64,000 nt of DNA from Bdellovibrionales bacterium (GTDB lineage Bacteria > Bdellovibrionota > Bdellovibrionia > Bdellovibrionales > JAUICD01). The position numbers were made by a program, and so were the translations under genes. Within the stretch, counting starts at the first letter, position 1. Every line of letters starts with the position of its first letter. A model generated the notes under the pieces. That model was given only the letters and a program-made list of their open reading frames with translations. It did not search any database and was not told the DNA's origin. Shown here in pieces: positions 1,688 to 64,000 of the stretch. Location: the NCBI GenBank assembly GCA_965197425.1, contig CBDANC010000015.1, positions 10,704 through 74,703 on the forward strand, given 5' to 3'.

Positions 1688-1722
1688 GGTCTTTTGTATA
1701 GGTTTTACGCTTATAAAAAATC
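1688..1722 (-). promoter_or_regulatory. Conserved bipartite motif upstream of nrdA, shared with the nrdB upstream region
   Basis: GGGTCTTTTGTATAG + GTTTTACGCTTATAAAAAA here; compare 3324-3380. Confidence 0.35.
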
Positions 1723-1916
1723 AAAAATTTGTAGTAGTAAAAAACAAAATAATTTTAGTGAGTTATAGATGCTCAATAATCACCATAATTCCTCGCAATA
1801 TAAAATATAAAAACAAATTGAATAAACCCCGTACTCAATGTAGTGTCCCGACCGACTTTATATTGATCGCAACTAGAGCTTACCTTTACTAAAGTTCTAT
1901 TTTCGTGGTCGCTGAC

Positions 1917-2180: not shown

Positions 2181-2181
2181 T

Positions 2182-4615: not shown

Positions 4616-5170
4616 TTGTCTTTTAAGGAAGTTGAAAATGGGACACTTAAACTTAGAGCAAATAACAGAGACTTAAAGTTGATAACAGGGTTTGGTTCTA
4701 AACACTTTTTGGTACTTGTTCTCTCATCAGCTTTTTTGATTTCTTGTGAAACCACACAAAAATCCGCAGACTCAACTAGAGATTCCTTGCCTTCTAGAGG
4801 AATTTCCAGCGTTAATTCCTTCGTAGATAGCAGAGGACACTCTCCCTTGCACGAAGCAACCAGAAGTGGTGATGTAAGATTAATTACTAGCTTAGTGCAA
4901 TCAGGAGGAGATATAAACATTGGAGATGCAATGGATGAAACTCCATTACATCTGGCGGCCAGAACAGGTCAAACAGCAGCGGTTAGAACTTTGGTGCGGT
5001 TGGGCGCTACGGTAAGCACAAAAGACAGGAAAGGACATACCCCTTTGCATGAAGTAGCTAGAAATGGTGATTCAGAAGCTGTTCGTTTTTTGGTAGGAGC
5101 TGGTGCAAATATAAATGAAATAGAGAAAACGAAACTGCACTTCACTTATCAGCTAAAAACAACCAACTAG
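4616..5170 (+). CDS. Ankyrin-repeat lipoprotein, 3' end truncated by a frameshift; true start probably the TTG at 4679
   Basis: Leader KHFLVLVLSSAFLISC (lipobox-like LISC). It is followed by three ankyrin repeats (GHSPLHEATRSGDVRLITSLVQSGGDIN, DETPLHLAARTGQTAAVRTLVRLGATVS, GHTPLHEVARNGDSEAVRFLVGAGANIN). Confidence 0.65.
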   Translation: MSFKEVENGTLKLRANNRDLKLITGFGSKHFLVLVLSSAFLISCETTQKSADSTRDSLPSRGISSVNSFVDSRGHSPLHEATRSGDVRLITSLVQSGGDINIGDAMDETPLHLAARTGQTAAVRTLVRLGATVSTKDRKGHTPLHEVARNGDSEAVRFLVGAGANINEIEKTKLHFTYQLKTTN

Positions 5171-41164: not shown

Positions 41165-41180
41165 ATTCTCACTCCTATTA

Positions 41181-41496
41181 GTCTTTGGTCTCATTAAACT
41201 TACTTTTAGCAAATGGATCGGCATCGTGTCCAGAGCTGGGCAACCATTCAGCTAAAAAAGTTTCTTTGCTCAGCGACGTGCTTTGCACACCGCTACGCCA
41301 ATCAACTTTTATTAGCCTAATTAGGAAGACCTTTGGCAAATGGATCGGCATCGTGTCCAGAGCTGGGCAACCTCTCAGTAAAAAAACCGACCTTGGGGAG
41401 GTTGTTTCAATTGGAAAACATAAAGATTTATCTCGTGAGCCAATTGAACCAAAGAAGGCAAAGCCTCCTTATTTTTTACCTCGTTAACCTCACCTT
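41181..41496 (+). repeat. Modular intergenic repeat, locus 2: degenerate tail (41181-41206), unit 2a (to 41333, alternative body), unit 2b (41334-41496, A-B-C)
   Basis: AAATGGATCGGCATCGTGTCCAGAGCTGGGCAACC occurs twice (41211-, 41338-). The body ...CCGACCTTGGGGAGGTTGTTTCAATTGGAAAACATAAAGATTTATCTCGTGAGCCAATTGAACCAAAG is present. The tail CCTCGTTAACCTCACCTTT overlaps the engB 3' end. Confidence 0.9.
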
Positions 41497-42021
41497 TAGC
41501 TTTTTTTTTACTTCTAAAATACCCTTTTTGGTTTTTGAAGAACACACAAAAACATTATTAATTCCAGACACACTCTTTATTTTATCCATTTTTTTATTTG
41601 TATCTTTTAATTTATCAGCTTTACTTAGTATTATATAAATGGGAATCGACTTGTTTTTAGCTAATTTTATCAACATAATTTCATCTTTTGTTAAATCTCT
41701 TCGTATATCCATCAAAAGAAGCATTAGCCTTAGCTCAGATCTTGTTTGTAGATAATTTTCTACCATATTCTTCCATTTATTTATCTCATCAAAACTTCTT
41801 TTGGCATAACCATATCCTGGCATATCTACTAAAATATAATCTTTCATATCAAAAAAGTTTAAAAGATTTGTTTTGCCAGGTATTTTAGACACTCTGGCAA
41901 CTTTGGCACCCGATAATGAATTTAAAAAGGAAGACTTGCCAGCGTTAGAACGACCTACCAGGGCAACTTCAGGCATTGAATGTACAGGATAGTCATAGTC
42001 ACAACTTTTTATAAACATCAA
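41476..42021 (-). CDS. engB: Ribosome-biogenesis GTPase EngB/YsxC/YihA
   Basis: 181-aa ORF with G1 GRSNAGKSS and G3 DMPGYG; I did not locate the G4 motif. The last 7 codons plus the stop lie inside repeat locus 2. Confidence 0.85.
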   Translation of the reverse strand: MMFIKSCDYDYPVHSMPEVALVGRSNAGKSSFLNSLSGAKVARVSKIPGKTNLLNFFDMKDYILVDMPGYGYAKRSFDEINKWKNMVENYLQTRSELRLMLLLMDIRRDLTKDEIMLIKLAKNKSIPIYIILSKADKLKDTNKKMDKIKSVSGINNVFVCSSKTKKGILEVKKKLKVRLTR

Positions 42022-46051: not shown

Positions 46052-46198
46052 TTAAAACCTTAGACCGCTAATTTTTTGATAAGCTTTGCCCCTCAGCATC
46101 TTATTACTTTCATATTATTCTCTAGACTTATGTATGATTAAAAAATTCATATGGTTAATTGTCTAAGAGTTTTTTTAATATGTGTCGATATTTATATT

Positions 46199-47542
46199 AT
46201 GGCATTAAATACAAAATTGGATCTGAGTAAAAACACTATTGTGTATGGCAATTGCTCTGATGAAGATGGTCAGGGTTGGCTTAATTTAATATCCGAAAAA
46301 TCTGTTGATTTGATTTATATAGATCCTCCATTTTTTTCAAACAGGGATTATAAAGTTGTGTGGGGCAATGGTTACGAAGTTCGCTCTTTTGGAGATCGAT
46401 TTAAAGGTGGAATTGATCATTACATTAATTGGATGAAACCAAAAATTTTAGAATCAAAAAGAGTATTAAATGATACAGGATCTATTTTTTTACATTGTGA
46501 CTGGCATGCAAGTCATAGACTTAGGTGTTTATTAGATGAAGTATTTGGAGAAAAAAGTTTTATAAATGAAATAATATGGTTTTATCCCAATGGTGGAGGA
46601 AGGAGTAAATCTTGGCTTAACAAAAAACATGACACAATTTTTTGGTACGCTAAAGACAAAAACAAATTTAAATATAATTGGAAAGAAATAGCTTTAAGTC
46701 GAAATCAAGATCAAAAAACTTTTGGAGGGTATTTTAAAACAGATAATAAGGGAACTTATCAAGAAGTAAGATCAAACGGTAAGGTATATAAGTACTATGT
46801 TGACGAGCCAAAAAATAATGATGATGTTTGGTTTTTAAATATTATTTCTCAAAGAGATACAACAGAGAGAATTGGATATAGAACTCAAAAACCTGAAGCT
46901 TTGATAAAAAGGATTGTAGAGTGTTCTACTGATAAAAATGATGTAGTGTTAGATTTTTTTGGTGGGGGCGGTACTACTGCAAAGGTTTGTTCTGATTTAG
47001 ATAGGAGATTTATCACAGGTGATGTATCTCCTATTGCTGTTAGAGTAACAGCAGATCGGTTGAGTGATAATGGATATAGAGACTATGAAATAAAAGGATT
47101 GCCTTCTACAAAAAAAGAATACCATAGTATGCACAAAAACAAGTTTGTTCAAATAATATGCGACCTAATGGGCTGGGATAGGAATTTAAAAAAATCATTA
47201 AACAATACTTTTGATGGATTTGCTGATGAGGGTAATATACCTGTTTTTATTCAAAATCAAAGTGAGAAAACTTCTATACCCGATATTAAAAAATTCTTAA
47301 AGCTTTTAGCTAAACATAAAAAAGGAATCTTTGTTTCTTGGGATTTTTCCAAAGAAGCGTCAGAATATGTGTATAGTTTAATACAACAAAAAATAACACT
47401 ACTTGCAGTTAAGGAAATTTTAAACGGCTTATTAATTTCTGATGAATTATCTAAAAAGCCAAAGAAATTATATGATGCTGATACAAAAAAGATTTCTTGG
47501 GAAGACAAGTCTGTGCATGGATTAAAGCAAAAAACAGCATAA
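46199..47542 (+). CDS. Beta-class (motif IV before motif I) N6-adenine/N4-cytosine DNA methyltransferase fused to an Mrr-like C-terminal domain
   Basis: DLIYIDPPFFSN (motif IV) precedes VLDFFGGGGTT (motif I). The C-terminal ~110 aa follow the Mrr_cat pattern (FVQIICDLMGW..FDGFAD..VFIQNQSEK..IPDIKKFL..KGIFVSWDFSKEASEYV). The likely start is MALNTKLDL at 46199; the track ORF starts at 46151. Confidence 0.8.
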   Translation: MALNTKLDLSKNTIVYGNCSDEDGQGWLNLISEKSVDLIYIDPPFFSNRDYKVVWGNGYEVRSFGDRFKGGIDHYINWMKPKILESKRVLNDTGSIFLHCDWHASHRLRCLLDEVFGEKSFINEIIWFYPNGGGRSKSWLNKKHDTIFWYAKDKNKFKYNWKEIALSRNQDQKTFGGYFKTDNKGTYQEVRSNGKVYKYYVDEPKNNDDVWFLNIISQRDTTERIGYRTQKPEALIKRIVECSTDKNDVVLDFFGGGGTTAKVCSDLDRRFITGDVSPIAVRVTADRLSDNGYRDYEIKGLPSTKKEYHSMHKNKFVQIICDLMGWDRNLKKSLNNTFDGFADEGNIPVFIQNQSEKTSIPDIKKFLKLLAKHKKGIFVSWDFSKEASEYVYSLIQQKITLLAVKEILNGLLISDELSKKPKKLYDADTKKISWEDKSVHGLKQKTA

Positions 47543-50823: not shown

Positions 50824-51063
50824 TTATTCACCTTTCAAACTTTTTTGAATCTGCATCTGAGGAGTGCCACTAGCTTCATCGTGCCTGAAGCTAACTTTTT
50901 TTGAGGCAACCTCCCTAAGAGCGGTTACAACACTCATGTTATCGGTCTTTAAAAGCGGCTCCGCCCCAGAATACAGGCTCCTAGCCCTCTTAGCAACTAA
51001 CATCACCAACTCAAACCTGTTTGTTACCTTATCTAAACAATCTTCTACAGAAATTCTAGCCAT
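50824..51063 (-). CDS. rpoZ: DNA-directed RNA polymerase subunit omega
   Basis: 79-aa ORF, MARISVEDCLDKVTNRFELVMLVAKRAR. Confidence 0.88.
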   Translation of the reverse strand: MARISVEDCLDKVTNRFELVMLVAKRARSLYSGAEPLLKTDNMSVVTALREVASKKVSFRHDEASGTPQMQIQKSLKGE

Positions 51064-51223
51064 GCATTCACCTCAATCTAACACTCACTCCGACTACTAA
51101 AAACTTGCTTTTTGGCAGACAAACTATGTTTCGGTCTATCGCTATTCCTTAAGCTCTATCTGCCTACAATTCACGTTGTTTTCGTGGTCCTTTCTTCTAC
51201 CACTAAGTTTACCAAACTTCACC

Positions 51224-51799
51224 TTATTTTATAATATTCTCGACAATTTTTCTAAATTTTTTATAAGCTTCATCAAAATTGTTGTTTATTATCTGGTGAT
51301 CATATTCACAGGCACTTTTCATTTCCATATCAACCACTCTTAACCTGCCTTCAATGTCTTCTGTACCTTTGTTCTTGCTTCTAGCCCTCAGCCGCTTTTC
51401 TAACTCCTCAATTGAAGGGGGAAGGATAAAAATGGTGTGGCTTTCAGGGTATAGCTTTTTTAAGCTGGTGGCCCCAGCTACATTTATATCCATCATTAGA
51501 AATTTGCTCCCTAAACTCATCCTCTCTATCTGATGCCTAGGAGTGCCATACAGCTCACCATGTACTTTTTCCCATTCTGCAAAATAATTTTCCTTTATCT
51601 GTTTTTCGAAATAATTTTTACTGACAAAGAAATATTCTTGTTTATCTCTCTCACTTTCCCTGAGGCTCCTGGTGGTGCAACTGATGCTATAGGACAAACA
51701 ATTTTCTAGCTCCTTCAATATTTTGTTGCACAAGGTGGATTTGCCCACTCCACTAGGCCCTGATACGATAATCAAATTAGTTCCACCATAACTATTCAT
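51224..51799 (-). CDS. gmk: Guanylate kinase
   Basis: 191-aa ORF with SGPSGVGKST and TTR...E..G..Y.FVS. Confidence 0.9.
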   Translation of the reverse strand: MNSYGGTNLIIVSGPSGVGKSTLCNKILKELENCLSYSISCTTRSLRESERDKQEYFFVSKNYFEKQIKENYFAEWEKVHGELYGTPRHQIERMSLGSKFLMMDINVAGATSLKKLYPESHTIFILPPSIEELEKRLRARSKNKGTEDIEGRLRVVDMEMKSACEYDHQIINNNFDEAYKKFRKIVENIIK

Positions 51800-51801
51800 A
51801 A

Positions 51802-52653
51802 TTATTCTATATTCTGTACCTGTTCCTTTATTTGTTCAATCAATAATTTTGCTTCTATAACCATCTTGTTTGTTTGGTACTTATTGGATTTAGCTCCAAT
51901 TGTATTTACTTCTCTTAACAGTTCTTGAGTATAAAAATCCATTTTTTTTCCAATAGGGTATATAGACCTCGTGTCTTTTTTAAAAGCTTTGATGTGTTCC
52001 TTTAGCCTAGAAACCTCTTCTGAAATTTCTGATTTATCTAAGTTAAACACCACCTCATATGCAAGTTTACTTAGATCTACACCACTAAACGATTGTTCTA
52101 GCCCCGATAATCTTTTTTTTATGTTTGTTCTTGGGATTTTAACTTTTTCTAGCTTAGAAATTATAAGGGTGAGTTTCTTTAAAATAGTGTCAATTTGCAC
52201 CTTTGTTGCATTTCCTTCTTTTCTTCTGTTAGACAAAAGTCTTTCAGTAACCTTTTGTATTAAATTGCAAATTGACTTTTCTTCTAAATTACTTACATAT
52301 CTTTCTACCTTCACTGCTCGTTCAAACAAATTTGAGTTTAGATCAATGTTAGCTTTCAGTTTGGAAAATATTTTCTTATATACATCAGATATTTTTTTAG
52401 CAAGTTCCATGTCTAGCTCAACTTTTATGTTCTTGCCGGAGTTAATTTTGTTTATATATAAGTAAACATTTCCTCTATGGATTTTCTTTCTTATAATGCC
52501 CCTAATTTTGGGTTCTAGAAAACTATATTCTTTAGGAAGGTTTAACTTAATATCCAAAAATCTGTTATTATAAGATTTAATGGTAATATCAATTATTGAA
52601 CCATTAAATTTGTGAACTGTATTATAAAATCCAGTCATGCTATTCATATGCAT
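51802..52653 (-). CDS. yicC: YicC-family stress-induced protein (putative endoribonuclease)
   Basis: 283-aa ORF with N-terminal SMTGF and C-terminal ...REVNTIGAKSN.... Confidence 0.8.
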   Translation of the reverse strand: MHMNSMTGFYNTVHKFNGSIIDITIKSYNNRFLDIKLNLPKEYSFLEPKIRGIIRKKIHRGNVYLYINKINSGKNIKVELDMELAKKISDVYKKIFSKLKANIDLNSNLFERAVKVERYVSNLEEKSICNLIQKVTERLLSNRRKEGNATKVQIDTILKKLTLIISKLEKVKIPRTNIKKRLSGLEQSFSGVDLSKLAYEVVFNLDKSEISEEVSRLKEHIKAFKKDTRSIYPIGKKMDFYTQELLREVNTIGAKSNKYQTNKMVIEAKLLIEQIKEQVQNIE

Positions 52654-52724
52654 CTCCTGTCATATGTATTCTATGATGCGCTTACTGATTATAGCAGTCC
52701 AGTTGAAAGTAACTGTGTCAAAGT

Positions 52725-52931
52725 GTTTGTTTAGCTTCTTTATTTTTTGCCTCGTTCGGAAGACCTTAGAGTAACAGGATCGGCATCGTGTTGCAGAGCT
52801 GGGCAACCACTTGGATAAAAAACCGACTGCAAAGAGGTTCATCCAATTGGAAAATATAAAGGTTTATCCCGTAAGCCAATTGAACTAAAGAGAACAAGTC
52901 CACTTGTTTTTATCCTCGTTCGGAAGACCTT
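52725..52931 (+). repeat. Modular intergenic repeat, locus 3: orphan tail (52725-52767) plus one complete A-B-C unit (52768-52931)
   Basis: The unit is flanked by direct copies of CCTCGTTCGGAAGACCTTAG (52750-52769 and 52914-52933). It contains all three modules and overlaps the miaA 3' end. Confidence 0.9.
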
Positions 52932-53839
52932 AGGGTTAATTCTATTTTGTTCATAATGCCACGAATATTTTCATTGTGTTTTACTTTTAGTATTTTATAT
53001 TGCTCGCTCTCATATCTGTTAAACCATGTGTTTTGTTTTTTAACCAACTTCATAGTTGATTTGACTATTTCTTCTTCTAATTCTTGTTTACTAAGCGAGC
53101 CTTCAATAAATTTTATGGTTTCTTTATAACCTACACTGTTCATAGGAGACCAGTTTTTTAATCCTTTGTCTAATAAACCCTGCACCTCTTCTATTAGGCC
53201 ATTATCTAACATTTGCTTTGTTCGCAAGGTTACATTTTTTTTAATTTCTGATTTATCCATTTCTATTCTTAAAAAAACATATGGATAGGGGAATTGTTTT
53301 TTTACATAAGTTCTTTTTATTTCAGTAATAGTTCGATCTTGAAGGCGCATTATCGATGCTGCCCTTAATATTCTATATTTATCATTTTGGTTTATTGTTG
53401 CTGCATATTCTGGATCTTTTTTTTTAATTTCTTCATAAATAAAGGCAAGCCCTTTGTTTTTTAAATCATGATCTAATATATTTTTTAATTCTATAGGTGT
53501 TTTGGGGAAGTTATACATTTCAGATATAAGCGCATTTATATAAAATCCACTTCCTCCTACTATAAATGCATACTCTGTTTTTATTTTAGATAACTTGCTA
53601 AGGCATAATTTTTTAAATTCTCCTGCAGTAAACTCATGTCCTTCACTCAATATATCAAATAGATGATGTGGAGTTTTATTTAAGTCCTTTTTTTTTGGTT
53701 TAGATGATCCAATGTTTACAGATTTAAAAAATTGTATACTGTCAGAATTTATAATCTCTGCATCATATATCTCTGCCAGCCTTAATGCTAAGGCTGATTT
53801 TCCTACTGCTGTAGGGCCTATTATAAATACTGCCTTCAT
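52910..53839 (-). CDS. miaA: tRNA dimethylallyltransferase
   Basis: 309-aa ORF with GPTAVGKSALAL and YRILRA.... The last 7 codons plus the stop (LRSSERG*) lie inside repeat locus 3. Confidence 0.9.
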   Translation of the reverse strand: MKAVFIIGPTAVGKSALALRLAEIYDAEIINSDSIQFFKSVNIGSSKPKKKDLNKTPHHLFDILSEGHEFTAGEFKKLCLSKLSKIKTEYAFIVGGSGFYINALISEMYNFPKTPIELKNILDHDLKNKGLAFIYEEIKKKDPEYAATINQNDKYRILRAASIMRLQDRTITEIKRTYVKKQFPYPYVFLRIEMDKSEIKKNVTLRTKQMLDNGLIEEVQGLLDKGLKNWSPMNSVGYKETIKFIEGSLSKQELEEEIVKSTMKLVKKQNTWFNRYESEQYKILKVKHNENIRGIMNKIELTLRSSERG

Positions 53840-55593
53840 ACTATTCTACAGAATTCTGTGTCTAGTTTGGTAAAGGGATATTCTATATATACAGGTCTTC
53901 CATGAGGACAAAAGCTTGATAATGAAAACTCATCCATTTGTTCAAGTAAACCTTTTATCTCTAAATTGCTTAAAACTTTCCCTGCTCTTATTGCAGAATG
54001 ACAGGCCATTGTGGCAAAAATATTTGATATGTTTTCCTCTATAGGAGCATTGCCCTTATTTAATTCTATATCATTTAGTATGCATTCAAGACCTGATTCT
54101 ATACTTTTTTTATTTAAGATTACTGGGCCTGATAAAATTTCTATAAAGTTTTTGTCAAACGAAATGTTTATGCCTATTTTTTCTAAAAATTTAGTTTGGG
54201 ATTTTAAGACGGATATCTTGTCTCTATCTAACTCTGTTTTTATAGGGATAAGGTTGTTTTGAACTTTAATATTGCCAGATGAAAATTCAAAATTTAATTT
54301 TTCATAAAGCATCCTTTCATGTGCTGCATGCTGATCTATCAATATCAAACTATTTCTAGATTGAGTTATTATATAAGTACAATTGCATTGGCCTATTATA
54401 TCTAATGCTTGCCATTTTGGTTCTTTTTTAGAAATTAAAGATTCTTTGTTAGAAGGTGAACCTTGTAATGTTTCGGCAGGTCTTGACCATTTAAAATTAG
54501 TGGAGTTATTAAACGTTTTTTTTGCAAAGTGAGCTACATTAAATGTGTTTCCTCTAAACCCTGTGGTAACTTGAGGTTTGTGATTTCTAATCGAGTTTTC
54601 TTCAGGTAAAACCCTGTTAAGCCATGGAGAGTTTTGTAATGCTGGTCTTAATGTTTGTACAACTGAATTAAAAATTTCTGACTGTCTTAAAAATTTAACC
54701 TGGGATTTTGTAGGATGAATATTTATGTCAATCTCATCTTTTTTACACTTAATACTCAGCGCAACTATAGGAAACTCTCTGTGCATAAGTAAAGTTCTAT
54801 AACTTTCCATAATAGCTGCTTGGATAGATTTATCCTGTATCCATCTGTCTTGTGCAAATATCCAAACATTTTGAGATGTTTTTTGAGTATTGTTAGGGCT
54901 AGAAAAACAAACTTCTATATTAAAACTATTTATGAATTTCTTAACATGGTATAGTTCATCTAAATCTAATACATTTTTTGCTCTTTCATAAAAAGAGTCT
55001 TTTGGGCTGAAGATATTTACTAGCTCTGAGTCTTGGCTTAACTTAAACTCTGTTTTGAAGTTGATTAAAGCTAAGGCTTTTAGTGTTTTTTTTATGGAAA
55101 TTGACTCTGACCTATTGGACTTTAAAAACTTTAATCTTGCAGGCAGATTTTCAAATAACTTTTTAACACTAATCAATGTACCGCTATCGCCGTGGCTTTT
55201 AACAACTGGGCTTGATTTTCCAAAATTTGAGGTAATGTTAAATGCCTCGTCATCTTTGGTTTTAGAAGTTATAGAAAGAATACTTACACTGGCTATACTA
55301 TGTAAAGCCTCGCCTCTAAAACCAAAGCTGTCTAAGTTCCATAAATCATCTATGTTTGATATTTTGCTTGTAGAGTATCGGTCTAATATTAAAGGTAGAT
55401 CTTTTTTGGTTACGCCTATGCCATTATCTTTTACCAGGATCTCTCGTCCACTATCAGAAAAATTTATATGTACCTTACTGGCCCCAGAATCTATGCTGTT
55501 TTCTACAAGCTCTTTTACAATCTGAGATGGCCTATCTATTATTTCACCGGCTGCAATTTGGCTTATCACATTTTCTGGTAATTTGATAATCAT
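53836..55593 (-). CDS. mutL: DNA mismatch repair protein MutL
   Basis: IKLPENVISQIAAGEIIDRPSQIVKELVENSIDSGA, GFRGEAL, and a C-terminal dimerisation/endonuclease region (DQHAAHERMLYE...CPHGRP). The likely start is MIIKLP at 55593; the track ORF starts at 55611. Confidence 0.9.
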   Translation of the reverse strand: MIIKLPENVISQIAAGEIIDRPSQIVKELVENSIDSGASKVHINFSDSGREILVKDNGIGVTKKDLPLILDRYSTSKISNIDDLWNLDSFGFRGEALHSIASVSILSITSKTKDDEAFNITSNFGKSSPVVKSHGDSGTLISVKKLFENLPARLKFLKSNRSESISIKKTLKALALINFKTEFKLSQDSELVNIFSPKDSFYERAKNVLDLDELYHVKKFINSFNIEVCFSSPNNTQKTSQNVWIFAQDRWIQDKSIQAAIMESYRTLLMHREFPIVALSIKCKKDEIDINIHPTKSQVKFLRQSEIFNSVVQTLRPALQNSPWLNRVLPEENSIRNHKPQVTTGFRGNTFNVAHFAKKTFNNSTNFKWSRPAETLQGSPSNKESLISKKEPKWQALDIIGQCNCTYIITQSRNSLILIDQHAAHERMLYEKLNFEFSSGNIKVQNNLIPIKTELDRDKISVLKSQTKFLEKIGINISFDKNFIEILSGPVILNKKSIESGLECILNDIELNKGNAPIEENISNIFATMACHSAIRAGKVLSNLEIKGLLEQMDEFSLSSFCPHGRPVYIEYPFTKLDTEFCRIV

Positions 55594-55699
55594 GGGTATT
55601 AAATACAACATTTAATATAAAAGGCAAACCCAGTTTTAATTTTAGCTCTTTTATTTTGAAAATAAGAACAAAAAGAGCTTATAGAAAATATGTGAAGCT

Positions 55700-56746
55700 T
55701 CAAATATTATTTAATATGATAGCCAAAACAATCACTTGAGGCACTAAGACCAAGGGTATGAATAGAGCAGTTTTCCAAGACTTGGTTGTTTCCTTTACTA
55801 TCATAATTTCTGTATAATCTGTAGCAACACCTGCCATCAAAAAGGCAAAGGTATTCCCTACGGCCTTGGCTTTGTTAAAAATTTCTCCCGCCACTGGAGC
55901 CAACCCTTCAGAGCAAACTTCCAGTATAGTAGATATCCCCAACGTAATGCCCAACCCTAACAGCGTTGGAGCAAAATACTTACCTATATGAGCATCAGTC
56001 ATAAACATGTTCAATAGACCAGATATAACTATTCCAACACAAAGCCACTTAATAACTATTTTAGAACTACGTAATCCATGAATTATTATCTGATAAAAAG
56101 ATTGTAATGTTAGTTTGTCTTTTACAAACATATTTTTTGATAACTCTAATAGTGACACAGAGCTTTTGTTGTTTGAGCTGTTTGGGTTAGCAGGTAAGAT
56201 ACTACGATTTGTCAATCTGTCAAAAATCAACCCTGATATAATTGCTAGAAGCAAGGATAGAATAATAAAAACGATTGTCCACTTTATACCTATTAATGAA
56301 GCTAGAATAATTGTTATAGACATTGAGTTCCAAGGACTTGCTATTAGAAAACACATGACCTGGCCAAGGCTTACGCCTTTTTTATATAGCTTCATTGCTA
56401 CCATAAGAATACCATGGCTACACAGATCTAAAAATAGGCCAGCAAACGCAGCTCTAAACATTCCATCGAACGAATTGCCTTTACCAAATAATTTAACAAT
56501 AGCTTCATCAGGAATTTTATGAAGAAAACCAACAAATAAAATACTTAAAACAACACCTATCCAAACTTGATTGACCACTTCATATTGAGTTTCAATAAAC
56601 CTACTTAAATACAAGCGTTCTAAGTAATCTCCTATACTTATAACTTCACCAGTAAGGTGTATCAGATAAGAAAAACAAACAACTAAAACAACTGCTATGA
56701 AAAAATAGTCTCTTTTTTGCGTGTTACATTTCATGGGTTCATTCAT
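55700..56746 (-). CDS. Predicted permease (ArsP_1/DUF318-like polytopic membrane protein)
   Basis: 348-aa ORF with about 8-9 hydrophobic segments. The family call is tentative. Confidence 0.5.
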   Translation of the reverse strand: MNEPMKCNTQKRDYFFIAVVLVVCFSYLIHLTGEVISIGDYLERLYLSRFIETQYEVVNQVWIGVVLSILFVGFLHKIPDEAIVKLFGKGNSFDGMFRAAFAGLFLDLCSHGILMVAMKLYKKGVSLGQVMCFLIASPWNSMSITIILASLIGIKWTIVFIILSLLLAIISGLIFDRLTNRSILPANPNSSNNKSSVSLLELSKNMFVKDKLTLQSFYQIIIHGLRSSKIVIKWLCVGIVISGLLNMFMTDAHIGKYFAPTLLGLGITLGISTILEVCSEGLAPVAGEIFNKAKAVGNTFAFLMAGVATDYTEIMIVKETTKSWKTALFIPLVLVPQVIVLAIILNNI

Positions 56747-56887
56747 TAAGGTTAAACCTTAAGACATGTAAAGGCTAAAATATATAAAAAAAGACTATAG
56801 AGCAATAAATGGCAACGGCACCATCTCTCTATGGCTACACTGCTTAGCCATCTTTTGTTTTAAGGCTGAAAAAAATATCTTTAGTTT

Positions 56888-57604
56888 TTATAAACGATCT
56901 CTAACATATGATACTACGGCACTAACAGGATGCCTCTTACCATGCTCACTATCCACAAATGCATATTTGAATCTAGCCAAGCCGTCCACCATAAGATAAG
57001 CACTAATAGTCAGTTTTATGGCGTTGGAAGGAGCATTACGCAAAAACCGATGATTTTTTGGGGTAAGAGCTCTTAGGCCAGGATCAGTTTGTAGTCTTCC
57101 ACTGACCTCCAAGTGATGGTTCGTATTATATATTGATACATATAATAATACAGCTCCACCAGTCGTTTGAAGTAGTCCTAAAGCTAGTTGAGGTATGTTC
57201 ATTTCAGGGCTACCTATAACAGGGTGATCAAATGACATACCTTCTTGGTACCCCAAACCAAAGTTCTTGTATCCATCCGTCATATAAGATCCAATAGACG
57301 CGATTTTTTCTGAATGTGAGTCCTCTTCAAGGTTAAGATCAACTGTAATAGAGCGTTCTTCACCTTCGTCAATTTCCAAGTACACGGTCATGTAAACTGG
57401 GATTTCATTAAGAAAATCTTCTTCACTAATACCATCAAAATGAACCGTAGTAATATGATCTATGTCTATTACATAATCACTTATGTCGTGAACACTATCA
57501 TGTTTAGGAAAAGCCACTCGCTCGGGATTGTCGTCCGAGACATCATTTGCCTGTATGGAAGAAAACGAAAGGGTCAATAAGGCTGATAATAAAAACTTGG
57601 TCAC
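56888..57604 (-). CDS. Secreted protein of unknown function
   Basis: SD AAGGAGGTG precedes the GTG at 57604, giving signal peptide (M)TKFLLSALLTLSFSSIQA. The track ORF begins 30 nt further upstream. I recognise no family. Confidence 0.5.
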   Translation of the reverse strand: MTKFLLSALLTLSFSSIQANDVSDDNPERVAFPKHDSVHDISDYVIDIDHITTVHFDGISEEDFLNEIPVYMTVYLEIDEGEERSITVDLNLEEDSHSEKIASIGSYMTDGYKNFGLGYQEGMSFDHPVIGSPEMNIPQLALGLLQTTGGAVLLYVSIYNTNHHLEVSGRLQTDPGLRALTPKNHRFLRNAPSNAIKLTISAYLMVDGLARFKYAFVDSEHGKRHPVSAVVSYVRDRL

Positions 57605-57818
57605 AAACACCTCCTTAACAAAGGAACCTTTCACATAAAAAACTGCAATTTAGCATGTAAGAAAGTTTGTCAAGTTGAGATCTATTAAGTCAATATCCGC
57701 CAAGCTTAGAACATAGAACGTTAGGTGATGCAAAAAGCAGCCCTTCACAATCTTCTATTTGGTTTAGGTTCTACAGTGTAGTGTTGTTATTGTCTAGATA
57801 TTTATAAAAATTTCTCAT

Positions 57819-57980
57819 AAAGGTCTTCCGAATGAAGCTAAAAACAAGTGGACTTGTTCACTTTGGTTCAATTGGCTCACGGGATAAATCTTTATATTAT
57901 CCAATTGAAATAACCTCCCTGCGGTCGGTTTTTTAGCTGAGTGGTTGCCCAGCACTAGAACATGATACTGATCCCGTCTC
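57819..57980 (-). repeat. Modular intergenic repeat, locus 4: one complete A-B-C unit in inverted orientation
   Basis: The reverse complement reads ..GGATCAGTATCATGTTCTAGTGCTGGGCAACCACTCAGCTAAAAAACCGACCGCAGGGAGGTTATTTCAATTGGATAATATAAAGATTTATCCCGTGAGCCAATTGAACCAAAGTGAACAAGTCCACTTGTTTTTAGCTTCATTCGGAAGACCTT. Confidence 0.9.
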
Positions 57981-57994
57981 ATAAATTATAAAAA

Positions 57995-59251
57995 TTACCT
58001 AGGGAATATACCTCTTAACTGCATTGCTTTTTGCAACCTTTTGGCTGCAACTCCGATGGAAGCATTTCTAAGATTTAAATCCTTTTCCTTGGAAAATTCC
58101 CAAACTCTATCAAAGGCCTTCTCCATTGCTGTTTTAAGCCTTTCGTTAACTTCATCCTCTGACCAAAAATAAGACACTACGCCCTGTACCCATTCAAAGT
58201 AGGAAACCACAACTCCACCACCATTTGCCAAAATATCCGGTACAACTATTATTCCCTTTTTGTCCAATATCTCGTCGGCTTCAAAGGTTACAGGACCGTT
58301 TGCTCCCTCCAATATGATCGATGCTTTGACATCATTGGCATTGTGTTTGTCGATAACTCTGTCCAAAGCTGCTGGCAATAATACATCACACTTAAGGGTC
58401 AGAACCTCATTTCTGTCTATTGATTCTCCTCCATCAAATTCTGATAGGCTTTTGCTTTTTCTGTAAAAACACGTCAAAGCAGGGATGTCCAAACCATTCT
58501 TGTTATATATTCCCCCGAAAGCATCACCTATCGCTACGACCTTCATTCCTCTCTGATAAGCTGAGATAGCTGCATGTGAACCAACATTACCGAAACCCTG
58601 AATAGATATGGTTAGGCCTTTAAGTTTCTTGTTCAACTTCTTACACGCTTGAGTTAAGCAGTATATTGTGCCAAGACCAGTTGCACTGATTCTTCCCATG
58701 GAACCACCTATTTCTATAGGTTTTCCCGTTACAACACCAGGAACAGAAAAACCTGTTCTATGAGAAAAAGTGTCCATGATCCACGACATAGTCTGTTGAT
58801 CAGTACCCACATCTGGAGCCGGTATATCAGTTTCCGGACCTATTATCTGATATATTTCAGTTGTGTATCTTCTGGTTAGGGCCTGAAGTTCAGCTTCAGA
58901 GAGTTTGCTTGGATCAACACAAATTCCTCCTTTTGAACCTCCTAACGGCAAGTGGAGCAATGCATTTTTAAACGACATTAACATAGCAAGTGCTGCGATG
59001 TGACTTAGATCAACCGAAGTGTGATACCTTATGCCGCCTTTGCAAGGGCCTAAGGTCTGATTATGCTGTACCCTATATCCATCAAAAACTTTAACCTTAT
59101 TGTTATCCATACGTATGGGTACGCTTACTACTACAGATTTTCTAGGTTTTAATAACCTCAGCCTAACATCACTGTCTATGCCTATGATATCTGCTACTTT
59201 TTCAAAATTATTAACTGTATTCTTAAATAGATCACCTTGAAATAAATTCAT
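57995..59251 (-). CDS. gdhA: Glutamate dehydrogenase (Glu/Leu/Phe/Val dehydrogenase family)
   Basis: 418-aa ORF with GPCKGGIRYH, LPLGGSKGG and the NAD(P)-binding GFGNVGSHAA. Confidence 0.88.
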   Translation of the reverse strand: MNLFQGDLFKNTVNNFEKVADIIGIDSDVRLRLLKPRKSVVVSVPIRMDNNKVKVFDGYRVQHNQTLGPCKGGIRYHTSVDLSHIAALAMLMSFKNALLHLPLGGSKGGICVDPSKLSEAELQALTRRYTTEIYQIIGPETDIPAPDVGTDQQTMSWIMDTFSHRTGFSVPGVVTGKPIEIGGSMGRISATGLGTIYCLTQACKKLNKKLKGLTISIQGFGNVGSHAAISAYQRGMKVVAIGDAFGGIYNKNGLDIPALTCFYRKSKSLSEFDGGESIDRNEVLTLKCDVLLPAALDRVIDKHNANDVKASIILEGANGPVTFEADEILDKKGIIVVPDILANGGGVVVSYFEWVQGVVSYFWSEDEVNERLKTAMEKAFDRVWEFSKEKDLNLRNASIGVAAKRLQKAMQLRGIFPR

Positions 59252-59397
59252 AAAGCTCCAATATATTTTTGTTAATTCCCTAAGTAATAAAATAAATATT
59301 GCGAAAGCTGAATAACAAGTAAGTTTTTAGAAGTCTAGTACAAACAATGAAGATTGTGAAATGGGTTGAGGGGATTGAGTTTTAAAGTGGCTGTGTC

Positions 59398-59730
59398 AAA
59401 ACGTAATTCACCTGGCAAAAGTCGGCAGAGCCAACTTATTGCCAGGTTCAATCAGTGCTGGGGCTCACCTTTAGTTACGGGATCGGCACCGTGTCCACCA
59501 GGAAACAGCCACTCGGCCAAAAAGGAAAGCAAAACTTCCCTTATTTTTTGCTTCGTTCGGAAGCTTTTTAGTAACAGGATCGGCATCTTGTTCCAGAGCT
59601 GGGCAACCATTTAGCTAAAAAACCGACCGCAGGGAGGTTATTTCAATTGGAAAGTATAAGATTTATCCCGTGAGCCAATTGAACCAAAGTGAACAAATCC
59701 ACTTGTTTTTAGCTTCATTCGGAAGACCTT
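59398..59730 (+). repeat. Modular intergenic repeat, locus 5: leader (59398-59472), divergent A-C unit (59473-59569), complete A-B-C unit (59570-59730)
   Basis: Unit 5b is nearly identical to the locus 4 unit. The leader shares AACGTAATTCACC with locus 1 and contains an 8-bp hairpin CCTGGCAA..TTGCCAGG. It ends 1 nt before the kinase stop codon (59732-59734). Confidence 0.9.
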
Positions 59731-59731
59731 G

Positions 59732-61198
59732 TTACATCCATTGTGAGTCTTGGAACACAGCCTTGTTTTCATTAAAATTATCAGGGGACGGCATCAGGTA
59801 CCAAAATTCCTTTACTAACATTGCCAAAGCAGCAAAGGCCAGAATGGTAGCAACCATTCTTTTCCACGGAAAGTTATTTGCTAATATTTGCTTTTTTTGT
59901 ATTTTTTTTCTTTTTTTAAGAACTCTAGTTGAAATTACATTCCGGTCCACACTAATTTTTGAAGATAATGTGCTATGTAAACTTATTGTGTCTTTAGGTT
60001 GAAATATTTTTGGGACAGCTCTTGGTGTCCGCACAGAAGATGTATTGCTTTTTGTATCATGTAGTCGCTCCATAGATTTTATTTTGCCCCTAAGCTCCAT
60101 TGATCTACTCGGTTTTGGAGTAAAACCAGAAGACAACACTTTTTTATCCCTTGAAAATTCTTTTTTGTATTCTTCTTTAAAAATTTTTCTAAACTTCTCG
60201 CCAAGTCTTTCTGGGTTAAACTTGGGATAATTTATGTTTAAAAATTCATGTAACTTTTCATACAGCTTGAATGCTTCCATTCTTTTGTGTGGATCTCTTT
60301 GTAGCAGTTGCACTACAATGTTATCTATTTCTTCTGGAACATTCTGGTTGATTTCTCTTAGTAAAGGAACTTTAAGATTTAGAATGTTCTGTATTGTTTT
60401 CATTTCATTTGGTCTGTAAAATAATCTTTTGCCATTAGATAGCATCTCCCACATCACAACCCCTAAAGAAAAAATATCCGTTCTGTAGTCAAGATGTTTG
60501 CCTTGAGTTTGTTCTGGACTCATATAGGAAAATTTACCTTTTATGCTAGTTGTTTCGTCTACTCCTAAATCCTCATTGCCGGTTGATACGGCCTTAACTT
60601 TGCTGATACCAAAATCTAGAATTTTAACTTCACCTTCCCAACCGACCATTATATTTTGGGGACTTATATCACGATGTGCAGGCTTCTCATTCTCTTCTTT
60701 GTCAAACATATCGTATTGGTGGATGTAGTTAAGACCTCTTGCTGTCTCCTTTATGATATATACCACATCTTCTATCTCTAATTTGTTCTCTAACAAGCCT
60801 ATGTGTCGTAAACTCCGTTCTTGTTTGTTACTTCTAAGTTTTGTACTTATTTGCTTTAGGTTTCTTCCCTTTATGTAATCAACAACTAAACAGAGCTCGT
60901 TCGAGCCGTCGGAGTAGGCTCTATACGACTTTACCACATTTGGGTGATTCATATTTATGGCAATCTCAACTTCCCTTTTGAAGTACTCTCTAAACTTTGG
61001 TTGGGAAGCATATTTTGGTAGTATCTTTTTTATGGCCACTAACTTTTGTGTCTTTCTGTCTTTCTCGAGAGTTCTGGCAAGATATACTTCTGCCATACCT
61101 CCAGAAGCAAGCAAAGAAACTAGCTCATAACTGTTGCCTATAATCATGTTGTTATTGTATTTGGGCATTCCAGCGACCTCGTCTTTAGAATCGGCCAA
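59732..61198 (-). CDS. Hanks-type Ser/Thr protein kinase with a C-terminal TM segment
   Basis: 488-aa ORF with GGMAEVYLA...VAIKK, HRDISPQNIM, DFGISK, YMSPEQ and a hydrophobic MVATILAFAALAMLV near the C-terminus. Confidence 0.88.
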   Translation of the reverse strand: MADSKDEVAGMPKYNNNMIIGNSYELVSLLASGGMAEVYLARTLEKDRKTQKLVAIKKILPKYASQPKFREYFKREVEIAINMNHPNVVKSYRAYSDGSNELCLVVDYIKGRNLKQISTKLRSNKQERSLRHIGLLENKLEIEDVVYIIKETARGLNYIHQYDMFDKEENEKPAHRDISPQNIMVGWEGEVKILDFGISKVKAVSTGNEDLGVDETTSIKGKFSYMSPEQTQGKHLDYRTDIFSLGVVMWEMLSNGKRLFYRPNEMKTIQNILNLKVPLLREINQNVPEEIDNIVVQLLQRDPHKRMEAFKLYEKLHEFLNINYPKFNPERLGEKFRKIFKEEYKKEFSRDKKVLSSGFTPKPSRSMELRGKIKSMERLHDTKSNTSSVRTPRAVPKIFQPKDTISLHSTLSSKISVDRNVISTRVLKKRKKIQKKQILANNFPWKRMVATILAFAALAMLVKEFWYLMPSPDNFNENKAVFQDSQWM

Positions 61199-61315
61199 AA
61201 TTAACCCATTACTTTAGGTATTATTATTGTTATTCTAGGTGTAGTATTGCCTTGGGCAATACTGAGAAGTTGTACTTAAAATTGACATCTTTTTACTACA
61301 AATGGAGTTTATAGA

Positions 61316-61921
61316 TTGAAATGGATCGGTATAACAGGTGGCATAGGAGTAGGTAAGTCTAGTGTATGCAAGATTATTACTGAAAAGAAGCTACCAACAA
61401 TAGAAGCAGACAACATTATTCGTAAAACACTATTGCAAGATCATGAGGTGCAAAATGACATCATCAATGTATTTGGCAAAGAAATTTTAGATCATGAAGG
61501 TCAATTAGACCGAAAAAAGGTGGCTAGCGCAGCTTTTTCGAATAAAGCAAAACTATCTGAATTGGAGCAAATAATACATCCGAAGCTAGCGAATTTAGTT
61601 AAATTAAAAAGGGATTTGCTCAAAAAAAAAGGGTATAAAATAGCTTTTTATGAAGCGCCATTATTGTTTGAAAAACAAATGCAAGATCAATTTGATGAAA
61701 TAATCCTAGTTGCAGCTAAAGAAAATTTAGTTATAAAAAGACTTTTAAAAAGGGGATTAGAAAAAAACGACATATTACTTAGAATGAAGCATCAATTGCC
61801 CCAGAAAGACAAGTTAGCTCTAGTATCTTATGTTATTTGGAATAACTCATCACTGTATGATCTTAAAAAAGCTTGCTGTAAAGTTCTAACAGATATAACA
61901 AAAACAAATGATAAACAGTGA
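61316..61921 (+). CDS. coaE: Dephospho-CoA kinase
   Basis: 201-aa ORF, (M)KWIGITGGIGVGKS...EAPLLFE. TTG start. Confidence 0.88.
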   Translation: MKWIGITGGIGVGKSSVCKIITEKKLPTIEADNIIRKTLLQDHEVQNDIINVFGKEILDHEGQLDRKKVASAAFSNKAKLSELEQIIHPKLANLVKLKRDLLKKKGYKIAFYEAPLLFEKQMQDQFDEIILVAAKENLVIKRLLKRGLEKNDILLRMKHQLPQKDKLALVSYVIWNNSSLYDLKKACCKVLTDITKTNDKQ

Positions 61922-64000
61922 TATAAATATTAAATTCTTTGGTGATTGGAAAGATCTTAGTAAAGCACTTTCTTCTATAGATATTCAAAAAAACTCTCTT
62001 ATTGTATCTGGAATAAAAACTAAAACTGATCTTCAGTTTTATTTTTTAAACCAGCAAAAACTTCCTATGGTTGGAAATTCTATACAAACATTTTATGAGT
62101 TTTTAGAAGATGTCTTATTTCAAGTAAGGCTAGATATTAAAATTGTATCTAGTCACTACATTAAGGCAATGATAGCAAGAGAAGAAAACATGCCTGGGGC
62201 TTCTGAGTCTGTATTTGAGTTTTTAAAACTAATGCTTCCAGCCTTTTCTCATCCTAATGGATTTGAAATAATGTCAGAATGGTCACAAGCTCATAAAGCC
62301 AATATCCGATGGGGAAAATTATTTAAAAAGGCATATAAAGCATATACTCAAATTTTAGATCAAAACATTACAACTCAAGAATTTATACCTGCCCTACTCT
62401 TTAATCTAGATTTAACCAACATAAAAACAAAAAAAGTGTATTTTTACTTAAGTAGCAACTTAAAACCTGTATATATTCATATCCTAAATAATTTAGCTAA
62501 AAATAATGATCTAACCCTACTATGCCCTACTAAAAATTGGATAGATGAACATGAAGCACTAAAAGTCTATAGAGGACTTAAAGCTTCCAACACATCTATC
62601 TTATATAAATCAGAAAATAAAATAATCTCTAAAAGATTTACCTCTATGCTATCTGAGGTTAAGGATTGTATAGCACATGTAAGGAAATGGATAGAAGATG
62701 GCATTGAACAAAAAGATATAGTAATAGCAGCACCAGGTATTGAGTCTTATTGGGAAGTATTAAAAGAACATTTAGACGTTGAGGGCATAGGATATGATAG
62801 AGCAGTTAAAATACCAATACAAAGTTTTTCCGATGTAACCAGATTAATATCTACAATACGAGCAAATTTAATTCCTTCTAAAAATGATCTACAATTAGCT
62901 ATTTTTCACAAAGATAAACCCATTTCATCTTATGATTCTTTTTACGAACAATATGATGTAGTAACCGAGCTAGAAGACTATAAAAGATCTGAAATAGTCT
63001 TTAAATTTATATCAGATAAGTTTAATAAAGAAGCTTTAAGCTTAGATGAGTTTATTGAATATGTATCTGTGATTTGGAAAAAAATAAACGGCGATCCAGA
63101 TAGGTTAGCAAAAATTTTAAGTTGTCTTGTTCAAGATAATTTTACTTTCAAAATGAGTCTTTCTAAATGGTTTTATTATTTAGAATCGCTCTTGACTGAT
63201 GTAAAAATAACAAAAACTCACCCTAATTTAAATGGGGTAGGTATTTTAGATTTATCTAAATTAGACAGGTTGGATATTAAAAAAATATATCTAATGGGAG
63301 CTACTTATCAAGCAATGAATAGTTTTAAAAGTGTTCCCATCACAAAACAAGATTTAGATACCATAGAAAAAGATACTGGGTTTGTATTAGACTATAAATC
63401 TAGAAACTTAGAGTTTAATGCAGAGTGGATGTTATCTGGCAATGCTGATGTGGTGATAAGTTTTGCAGAAAACAGCTTTTTTTCAGACGAACTAACTCCT
63501 TCTTACTTTTGGCTAAAATATGCAAAATGCAAATTCACAAGCCAGCCTAAGAAGACAAGATGGGATTTGATTCAAGAAAAAAATGTTAGAAAACCTGGGC
63601 AAAGCAAATCTTATGATAATTACGCGATCAAAAAAACTTTAAAAAAATATGATCTAAAAAAAATATCTGCTACAGACATTGAAACATTTAAGAGTTGTCC
63701 CTTTATATTTTATGCAAAAAAATGTTTGGGATTAAGAGACAATGCTTCTTTAGGTTTAGATTTTAGTTACTTATACCAAGGATCATTTTTACATGAATGT
63801 TTAGAAGAGTTAGTTAAAGAGCCATTTAAAAATTATTCTAAAAAAGATCTTGAAAAGTATTTAAAAAATAAGATTAAACCTAAGGTTGTGGAGTCTAAAT
63901 ACATAGATAAATTTATACATAAATATGCTAGAATTCTTGAGAGAGTTTTTGAATTTGAATTAAAAAATAGGGAACAAAAAAATATAAAAACCATAGGCAA
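61908..64000 (+). CDS. AddB-like PD-(D/E)XK nuclease / helicase-nuclease subunit, 5' part; continues past the window end
   Basis: Absent from the ORF track because there is no stop in the window. Manual translation from ATG 61908 (14-nt overlap with coaE) stayed open over the first ~950 nt I read (MINSDINIKFFGDWKDL...); the stretch from there to the C-terminal block was not translated by eye. An AddB-like block follows (FTSMLSEVKDCIAHVRKWIEDGIEQKDIVIAAPG). Near the end comes ISATDIETFKSCPFIFYAKKCLGL, typical of the PD-(D/E)XK cap region. Confidence 0.65.
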   Translation, partial: MINSDINIKFFGDWKDLSKALSSIDIQKNSLIVSGIKTKTDLQFYFLNQQKLPMVGNSIQTFYEFLEDVLFQVRLDIKIVSSHYIKAMIAREENMPGASESVFEFLKLMLPAFSHPNGFEIMSEWSQAHKANIRWGKLFKKAYKAYTQILDQNITTQEFIPALLFNLDLTNIKTKKVYFYLSSNLKPVYIHILNNLAKNNDLTLLCPTKNWIDEHEALKVYRGLKASNTSILYKSENKIISKRFTSMLSEVKDCIAHVRKWIEDGIEQKDIVIAAPGIESYWEVLKEHLDVEGIGYDRAVKIPIQSFSDVTRLISTIRANLIPSKNDLQLAIFHKDKPISSYDSFYEQYDVVTELEDYKRSEIVFKFISDKFNKEALSLDEFIEYVSVIWKKINGDPDRLAKILSCLVQDNFTFKMSLSKWFYYLESLLTDVKITKTHPNLNGVGILDLSKLDRLDIKKIYLMGATYQAMNSFKSVPITKQDLDTIEKDTGFVLDYKSRNLEFNAEWMLSGNADVVISFAENSFFSDELTPSYFWLKYAKCKFTSQPKKTRWDLIQEKNVRKPGQSKSYDNYAIKKTLKKYDLKKISATDIETFKSCPFIFYAKKCLGLRDNASLGLDFSYLYQGSFLHECLEELVKEPFKNYSKKDLEKYLKNKIKPKVVESKYIDKFIHKYARILERVFEFELKNREQKNIKTIG

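Follow-up and report, generated by a model that had tools for sequence, protein, structure and literature searches.

A family of small modular interspersed repeats inserted at gene ends in a Bdellovibrionales genome

What are the composite repeats that recur between the genes of a 64-kb stretch of a Bdellovibrionales genome (GenBank assembly GCA_965197425.1, contig CBDANC010000015.1, positions 10,704 to 74,703; the whole stretch of 64,000 nucleotides is called the window below)? An earlier sequence-only reading of this DNA described them as a modular, chained intergenic family, likened each unit to a gene for a small RNA (sRNA) of ~140 nt, and set aside the idea that they are mobile. We find that the mobile-element reading is the one supported. 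The repeats are inserted DNA. They sit at the ends of genes and rebuild stop codons, vary between strains, contain a palindromic slot that is maintained in structure, and have no inverted ends. We give a probability of roughly 65% to the explanation that they form a family confined to one lineage, made up of small, modular, non-coding interspersed repeats that are non-autonomous and mobilised in trans by an enzyme encoded outside the window.

Repeat modules and their copies in the window

Reading of the sequence places the modules at five loci, listed below. All units follow one plan, with a module A at the 5' end, then a slot that holds a variable short hairpin and, optionally, a module B, and finally a 20-nt tail. 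Module A has a conserved core, CAGAGCTGGGCAAC or alternatively the variant ACCAGGAAACAGCC. Module B is 67 nt long and carries the stem CAATTGG/CCAATTG in all four of its copies; the slot that it uses holds other inserts at locus 2 and in L132, a contig of a close relative. The tail comes in two types (T1 and T2 in the list), ending in ...TTCGGAAGACCTTAG or in ...TTAACCTCACCTTTAG. A leader, AACGTAATTCACC, is common to loci 1 (1920-1932) and 5 (59400-59412), and locus 3 has a shorter related leader, CTGTGTCAAAG, at 52713-52723.

Hidden Markov models (HMMs) of the modules, built from the window copies themselves, were run over the window with nhmmer. They recover exactly 8 A modules (E-values from 4e-17 to 2e-10), 4 B modules (5e-24 to 6e-21), and 10-11 hairpin-plus-tail modules, with no significant match outside the five loci in the 64 kb and none in shuffled sequence. 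Module B follows half of the A modules (4/8). A repeat finder links the five loci as direct and inverted repeats, among them 52774-52931 with 57820-57977 (158 nt, 85% complementary) and 57820-57892 with 59658-59730 (73 nt, 99% complementary). The A-core pattern GGATCNNNATCNTGTN{5,6}GCTGGGCAACC has 6 matches in the window and none in 100 shuffles. The family described by the sequence-only reading is therefore genuine, and much of its anatomy holds: the counts of 8 A and 4 B modules over five loci, the leader common to two loci, the inverted copy at 57819-57980, the hairpin within B, the two types of tail, and the units that lack a body, which correspond to the 4 A modules without a following B.

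Four loci share one orientation and locus 4 has the opposite one; units within arrays are direct, chained head to tail. In the window, in L132, and in the contig of a more distant relative, L081, each boundary between modules carries YTT(T)AG with a short linker after it. Some linkers inside the arrays are specific to a locus, CAAAT at locus 2 and YTACA at locus 1.

The layout of the loci, by sequence reading and nhmmer, is as follows.

Locus 1, 1917-2180, plus strand: between the nrdB stop (2182) and nrdA
Locus 1, order: leader 1920-1932; hairpin and T2 tail 1942-1984; A 1986-2034; hairpin and T1 tail 2037-2080; A 2082-2131; hairpin and T2 tail 2138-2179
Locus 2, 41181-41499, plus strand: between pyrG and engB
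Locus 2, first part: T2-like tail 41185-41209; A 41211-41259; long unique hairpin and T1-like tail 41260-41336
Locus 2, second part: A 41338-41386; B 41387-41454; hairpin and T2 tail 41456-41499
Locus 2, gene ends: engB stop 41476-41478, inside the element; probable real start of pyrG near 41161
Locus 3, 52713-52934, plus strand: between yicC (start 52653) and miaA
Locus 3, order: short leader 52713-52723; degenerate hairpin and T1 tail 52733-52769; A 52773-52822; B 52823-52890; hairpin and T1 tail 52891-52934
Locus 3, gene end: miaA stop 52910-52912, inside the element
Locus 4, 57822-57976, minus strand: one inverted A-B-hairpin-tail unit downstream of gdh (sequence, nhmmer, and empty-site alignment)
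Locus 4, modules: A 57929-57977; B 57861-57928; hairpin and T1 tail 57818-57860
57813-57821: the 9-bp direct repeat TCTCATAAA on the left of the unit, a putative target-site duplication (sequence and empty-site alignment)
57977-57985: right copy of the same 9-bp direct repeat (sequence and empty-site alignment)
Locus 5, 59391-59730, plus strand: between gdh (start 59251) and a Ser/Thr kinase gene (stop 59732-59734)
Locus 5, first part: leader 59391-59412; strong hairpin CCTGGCAA...TTGCCAGG 59411-59447; T2-like tail 59460-59474; A variant with ACCAGGAAACAGCC 59475-59523
Locus 5, second part: hairpin and T1 tail 59528-59571; A 59573-59622; B 59623-59689; hairpin and T1 tail 59690-59730

Insertion at gene ends

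Syntenic contigs of relatives at several distances were reached by protein searches with MiaA, NrdB, and PyrG. Four of the five loci have empty orthologous sites in these Bdellovibrionota-like relatives: nrdB-nrdA, engB-pyrG, miaA-yicC, and the site downstream of gdh. At the last of these, which is locus 4, the contigs L081 and L082 align straight through the position of the unit, and the 155-bp unit of the window (57822-57976) has the 9-bp TCTCATAAA on both sides. Because the sites are empty and the short repeat stands on both sides, we read locus 4 as an insertion with a 9-bp target duplication. For this single-unit copy, the sequence-only reading was thus wrong to see no evident target-site duplication. 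The other loci with empty sites lack a clean duplication.

The remaining empty sites concern genes that are closer together, or overlap, in relatives. The spacing of engB and pyrG is ~315 nt in the window and 20 nt in L133 (~79% nucleotide identity), and the two genes overlap in L134. The genes miaA and yicC share an ATGA overlap in L082 and L083; in the window, these genes are ~285 nt apart. The nrdB-nrdA spacer of L131 lacks the element. As to the arrangement of this pair, nrdB and then nrdA (1446-3177, minus strand) are ~735 bp apart in the window, of which 264 bp are repeat array; the two genes are 267 bp apart in L131 and divergent in L130.

The units went into A/T-rich sequence at, or a few codons from, the 3' ends of genes. 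At all five loci the element starts 0-25 nt from the stop codon of the upstream minus-strand gene, and the tail faces this gene at four loci, the unit of locus 4 being inverted. All flanking genes are of the housekeeping kind (nrdB/nrdA, pyrG/engB, yicC/miaA, gdh/a gene for a 248-aa protein, and gdh/Ser-Thr kinase). The window as a whole has a G+C content of ~34%, a negative GC skew on the plus strand, and most of its genes on the minus strand; beyond the close relatives, the best named protein matches are to Bdellovibrio and other Bdellovibrionota (60-61% identity for PyrG, 40-45% for MiaA). The source is on this account a Bdellovibrionota-like organism, an uncultured one, and one of its relatives has a contig of 1.6 Mb.

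Insertion has changed the ends of two proteins. The tail gives engB and miaA their last seven codons and their TAA stop; this TAA arises on the opposite strand, where the T-run of the closing stem described below has its boundary. EngB ends in ...KKK followed by LKVRLTR from the element tail, against ...KKKH in L133, and MiaA ends in ...IEL followed by TLRSSERG. On the other side of locus 2, open reading frame (ORF) calling runs pyrG (39587-41224, minus strand) upstream into the repeat, so that the ORF of the window begins with MPIHLLKVSLMRPKTNRSENL; the pyrG gene call of L132 (protein P0242, 535 aa) begins at an ATG that belongs to the tail. The gene pyrG itself probably starts at a TTG near 41161, preceded by AGGAG, and the extended ORF is an annotation artefact produced by the element.

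Turnover between strains and distribution

Two contigs from one sample, L129 and L132, have 93-96% DNA identity to the window and are otherwise collinear with it. L132 matches at 94.5% identity over 17.8 kb, collinear except at locus 2, where its array measures 439 nt against 315 nt in the window and differs in composition: it has a nested inverted unit, other inserts in the B slot, and a different engB junction. L132 also contains a mini-unit made of a hairpin only, CAACAAGTCACCTTGTTTCTAACTTTAG. At locus 1 the window has two A-hairpin units and L129 a single one, a difference of 96 bp with the repeated A head at its bounds. Since these arrays differ in DNA that is otherwise collinear and 93-96% identical, they change faster than the surrounding sequence, likely by further insertion and by recombination between modules.

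Among the contigs examined, the family HMMs match only the window, L129/L132, and L081; there is no match in ~100 kb sampled from three other relatives (L082/L130/L133, L083/L131, and L134). One copy in L081 lies at the 3' end of engB, and the contig stops inside it. MiaA of L081 is 75% identical to that of the window, the A head has diverged, and the intergenic flanks are weakly alignable; despite this, the core CAGAGCTGGGCAAC, a variant ACCAGGAAACA, and both tails are nearly unchanged. Such a patchy spread, together with conserved end and core motifs, would fit a mobile family whose conserved parts something recognises. The strict A-core pattern has no match in GTDB species-representative genomes or JGI metagenomes, and blastn finds no similar DNA in plasmid and phage collections. 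Two stretches are faintly family-like, below HMM significance: GACCTTAGATGTAGGATCGGACAGAGTTGCC in L083 (1610-1692), between coaE and a kinase gene, and GGCATGTTCTCTGGGCAAC in L082 (1-265), upstream of gdh. They could be decayed copies or chance resemblances. The high copy number across the genome that the sequence-only reading took from the five loci is an extrapolation.

A covarying stem around a variable hairpin

A hairpin is invariably present after the A-run at the end of module A and before the T-run in front of the tail, and every slot that was folded forms a hairpin. Its sequence is another matter: the stems differ by copy (AACAAG/CTTGTT, AACAAAG/CTTTGTT, AAGGC/GCCTT, GGAAG/CTTCC, GGCAA/TTGCC, CCTGGCAA/TTGCCAGG), with at least six different stem sequences in the slot and long unique hairpins in two copies. 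Weak hairpins, at -3 to -7 kcal/mol with z near -1 and AT-rich inner stems of 5-7 bp, predominate. A minority are strong, at -11 to -22 kcal/mol with z under -3.7, and the leader hairpin of locus 5 has -21.9 kcal/mol (z -6.1).

Around the hairpin and B slot, the A-run pairs with the T-run in a closing stem of the form G-N-N-A5...T5-N'-N'-C, in which the three bases outside the runs covary (GCT/AGC, GAT/ATC, GCC/GGC, GT/AC). The arms were defined by a fixed rule, as the three bases adjoining each run. In the resulting trimmed-arm alignment, 92.9% of the cells are paired and 5 are double changes, which is reached by 9-10 of 500 shuffles, and slid controls are near zero. As the alignment has only seven distinct rows, this support for covariation is moderate. 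The sequence-only reading had proposed a conserved hairpin with compensatory changes in module A. A hairpin is indeed conserved, but it is this closing stem and not one in the A head, where RNAalifold gives -1.8 kcal/mol and no double-change pair. A structure of the whole unit was also considered and rejected, since units fold no better than shuffles on either strand (z -1.2 and -0.7).

With its A-run, hairpin, and T-run, the unit looks like a weak, bidirectional structure akin to an intrinsic terminator. Although every unit has a hairpin followed by a T-run, the consensus terminator scan passed only the tail hairpin at 59550-59564. In this sole element feature to pass the scan, the T1 tail forms GCTTC-GTTCG-GAAGC followed by TTTTT.

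How the repeats may move, and what else they could be

If the units are non-autonomous repeats mobilised in trans, the enzyme would recognise the conserved tail and core, and this recognition may be what the conservation of the A core and tails across species reflects. Arrays would grow, shrink, and reshuffle by more insertion and by recombination between repeated modules. The inserted tail would supply new terminal codons and a TAA stop to the gene, and the terminator-like arrangement of A-run, hairpin, and T-run could make insertion at gene ends tolerable, even useful or favoured.

Several observations weigh against this explanation. A clean target duplication is seen at one locus only. At locus 3, we considered the 7-bp repeat ATAGAAT (52939-52945 and 52668-52674) as a second one, which would restore a plausible MiaA end (...NKIEYI), and rejected it as within chance for AT-rich DNA. 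The sequence-only reading found neither a transposase nor terminal inverted repeats, and in both respects we agree: the window ORFs tested contain no transposase domain of any kind, and local alignments of the A head with the reverse-complemented tail score 6-12, which 931-2000 of 2000 shuffles equal. In the absence of inverted ends, the classical mechanism of transposable elements of the miniature inverted-repeat type (MITEs) moved by DDE transposons is not indicated. The locus-specific linkers CAAAT and YTACA point to gene conversion or to duplication within a locus, and array units with such common linkers fit these processes just as well as repeated insertion. Finally, most hairpins are weak and only one passed the terminator scan, so that terminator activity is putative.

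The units might instead be terminators or insulators selected by the host, kept for two-way termination or attenuation between co-directional genes, their mobility being secondary or historical. We regard this as unlikely. In its favour, all loci come directly after a stop codon, the closing stem covaries, and A-hairpin units have a T-run after the hairpin on both strands (for example AACAAAG-TGA-CTTTGTT-GC-T9 on the minus strand of locus 1). The conservation of core and tails between the window and L081, in weakly alignable flanks, would follow as well, and SPRITE elements of the pneumococcus have been read in the same way (PMC3049150). However, the stems are short, AT-rich, and weak, and the scan detects a single terminator. 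Three loci split genes that are coupled or overlapping in relatives (engB-pyrG, miaA-yicC, nrdB-nrdA); with genes so tightly coupled, termination at these places would do harm unless new promoters had appeared. The arrays also vary freely between strains ~94.5% identical, which resembles neutral turnover rather than constraint.

The 9-bp duplication argues for staggered cleavage, and the lack of inverted ends together with the constant ...CTT(T)AG/linker junction leaves room for a site- or hairpin-directed recombinase. One could imagine the units as "portable gene ends": mobile DNA without inverted ends, moved by an undescribed hairpin- or junction-directed mechanism that targets a stop-proximal A/T tract, and bringing along an in-frame stop, a stem that resembles a bidirectional terminator, and a slot open to cargo (B or other hairpins). 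This combination strikes us as speculative and rather improbable. Were it true, the element would actively rewrite gene boundaries and operons, with engB-pyrG, miaA-yicC, and nrdB-nrdA uncoupled.

The idea from which this work started, tandem sRNA genes in units of ~100-160 nt, each with its own plus-strand promoter and ending at a hairpin and U-run, fares worse and is in our view quite improbable. It would account for the hairpin and T-run at the 3' end of each unit on the element's own strand and for the 14-nt core CAGAGCTGGGCAAC conserved between the window and L081, and sRNAs derived from MITEs are known in Coxiella (review PMC10969869). But module A shows no covariation, and whole units fold like shuffles. 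No conserved -10 or -35 stands upstream of A: by eye, the tail-to-A junctions have no conserved -10 hexamer, their hexamers differing between copies, and a consensus promoter scan of 51000-62000 finds no plus-strand promoter ahead of the A modules there. The tail, which is the part best conserved across species, lies downstream of the terminator-like hairpin and would therefore be left out of the RNA. From one close strain to another, units come and go, are nested, or change orientation. The comparison with Rfam is negative for the whole window at gathering score and, at E-values up to 5 or 10, yields nothing that overlaps the repeat loci, in line with the earlier remark that the unit resembles no Rfam family. 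As covariation in A, folds, and promoters all fail, and the duplication and empty sites show insertion, the sRNA reading is poorly supported; there is no good evidence for sRNA genes here. An outward promoter in the leader was rejected too. The reverse-complemented leader has TTGACA at loci 3 and 5, but locus 1 lacks it, by eye no -10 has a workable spacing (22 nt at locus 3), and the promoter scan finds no minus-strand promoter at 52600-52760.

Very improbable, in our estimate, are cassettes assembled by site-specific or hairpin-directed recombination of single-stranded DNA at ...CTT(T)AG/TAAC..., by a tyrosine or Y1-type enzyme. This enzyme would be integrase-like or resemble those of IS200 or of the transposases associated with repetitive extragenic palindromic (REP) sequences, called RAYTs. 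Head-to-tail chaining without inverted ends would be explained, as would the YTT(T)AG and short linker at all module boundaries (window, L081, L132), and mini-units of a hairpin only do occur (CAACAAGTCACCTTGTTTCTAACTTTAG in L132). The structure of the hairpin is conserved and its sequence is not, there are no inverted ends, and four of the five loci share one orientation, on the strand of negative GC skew. Five loci are however too few for a strand bias, there is no recombinase gene nearby, and the 9-bp duplication at locus 4 is unexpected for transposition of the IS200/IS605 or RAYT type. REP sequences recognised by RAYTs are conserved, unlike the hairpins here. An analogy with the attC sites of integrons was also discarded, in view of the lack of RYYYAAC/GTTRRRY cores, of cassette ORFs, and of an integrase.

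Known type I toxin-antitoxin systems were first noticed as intergenic repeats, but genes of this kind, or for other small proteins, with a hydrophobic peptide on the opposite strand and the element-strand RNA as antisense, can largely be dismissed, since the one candidate frame (46 codons, VDLFSLVQLAYGINLYIFQLDEPLCSRFFIQVVAQLCNTMPILLL and a stop, on the minus strand of locus 3 through hairpin, B, and A) is stopped or shifted in the three other A-B-hairpin units (19-21 codons or no start), and cannot be encoded by units without B, and since the copies differ by indels among which some are not multiples of three. More generally, ORFs are conserved between copies on neither strand.

Comparison with known repeat families

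The repeats belong to the general class of small interspersed bacterial repeats, in which they are a newly described family. In their modular build they recall the BOX elements of Streptococcus pneumoniae, which consist of boxA-boxB(n)-boxC, span ~70-640 bp, are non-coding and intergenic near gene ends, vary between strains, and alter reading frames (PMC3049150). The likeness, judged from the description of BOX, covers the optional or variable internal module, the sites at gene ends, the alteration of frames, and the strain-variable arrays. In contrast with BOX, whose terminal inverted repeats allow boxA and boxC to pair into one tight fold, the present units have neither inverted ends nor a global fold, chain head to tail with common tails, and occur in a different phylum.

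SPRITE elements of the pneumococcus have as their main feature a hairpin with an A-run on one side and a T-run on the other, are strongly enriched at the 3' ends of coding sequences, where co-option as terminators is suspected, and lack clear inverted ends apart from these runs; attempts to establish a target duplication for them did not succeed (PMC3049150). Our units share the bracketed hairpin (AAAA/TTTT ends) and the position next to coding-sequence 3' ends. However, the SPRITE unit is uniform, with a duplex of 18 bp and a long tract rich in U, whereas here a variable hairpin, with stems mostly of 5-7 bp plus the closing stem, is surrounded by conserved, non-palindromic A, B, and tail modules, and a target duplication is seen (locus 4).

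Bacterial interspersed mosaic elements (BIMEs) of enterobacteria are mosaics of short motifs at gene 3' ends and between the genes of operons, some of them transcriptional attenuators (background in PMC3049150). Common traits are mosaic arrays at gene ends, strain-variable copy number, and the lack of both inverted ends and a transposase inside the element. BIMEs, however, are built on a conserved GC-rich REP palindrome, alternate in orientation, and are linked to RAYTs; the present family has at least six stem sequences and direct units. With MITEs such as Correia, RUP, and ERIC, the repeats share a small size, the non-coding and AT-rich sequence, multiple copies, insertion polymorphism, and a flanking direct repeat at the clean insertion. 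They lack the terminal inverted repeats that define MITEs, and no parent insertion sequence is known. The family thus resembles BOX, BIME, and SPRITE in behaviour and seems to belong to none of them.

A full-text search of the literature gave no report of such repeats in Bdellovibrionota, and our analysis adds a well-documented family of small interspersed repeats to this phylum. The evidence for insertion is unusually clean, with four empty sites, one flanking duplication, and turnover of arrays at the level of strains. It shows an element that splits translationally coupled or overlapping genes and rewrites protein C-termini and stop codons. Annotation is affected as well: ORF callers push pyrG into the repeat, engB and miaA gain element-encoded tails, and the contig of at least one relative breaks off within an element. 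Since a flanking duplication is found without inverted ends, the identity of the mobilising enzyme could be informative.

Other observations

A looser pattern, CAGAGCTGGGCAACN9AAAA, matches 45 JGI metagenome loci. We took this as a chance match of a 14-mer and discarded these loci, the AT-rich cluster among them being the inverted end of a different small transposon. This transposon has inverted ends CAGAGCTGGGCAACTCAA and subterminal repeats GAATTGAATTGA, and occurs at many contig ends (L084-L124, from JGI, with a GC content of 0.30-0.34); both of its ends are visible in L105. It has a 14-mer in common with module A, apparently by chance. In L084, the only contig of this set whose ORFs were read, the proteins are eukaryote-like (NHL/B-box and TPR proteins).

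Elsewhere in the window, an orphan N6/N4 DNA methyltransferase gene (46151-47542, plus strand; PF01555) stands between a DEAD-box helicase gene and a GYF-PilZ gene, as it does in L132. Because these two neighbours are adjacent in L081 and L133, the methyltransferase gene looks like a lineage-specific insertion. A 459-aa ORF (11298-12677, minus strand), which has no Pfam match, contains tandem 36/42-bp repeats, GGAGGAGG...CACCCATCATATCA, at 11521-11720; its coding strand would specify a proline-rich repeat protein. Lastly, the gene at 4616-5170 (plus strand) encodes an ankyrin-repeat protein (Ank_2, E 2e-28), in what is apparently a small, low-GC, Bdellovibrionota-like genome, and this protein may hint at a host-associated lifestyle.

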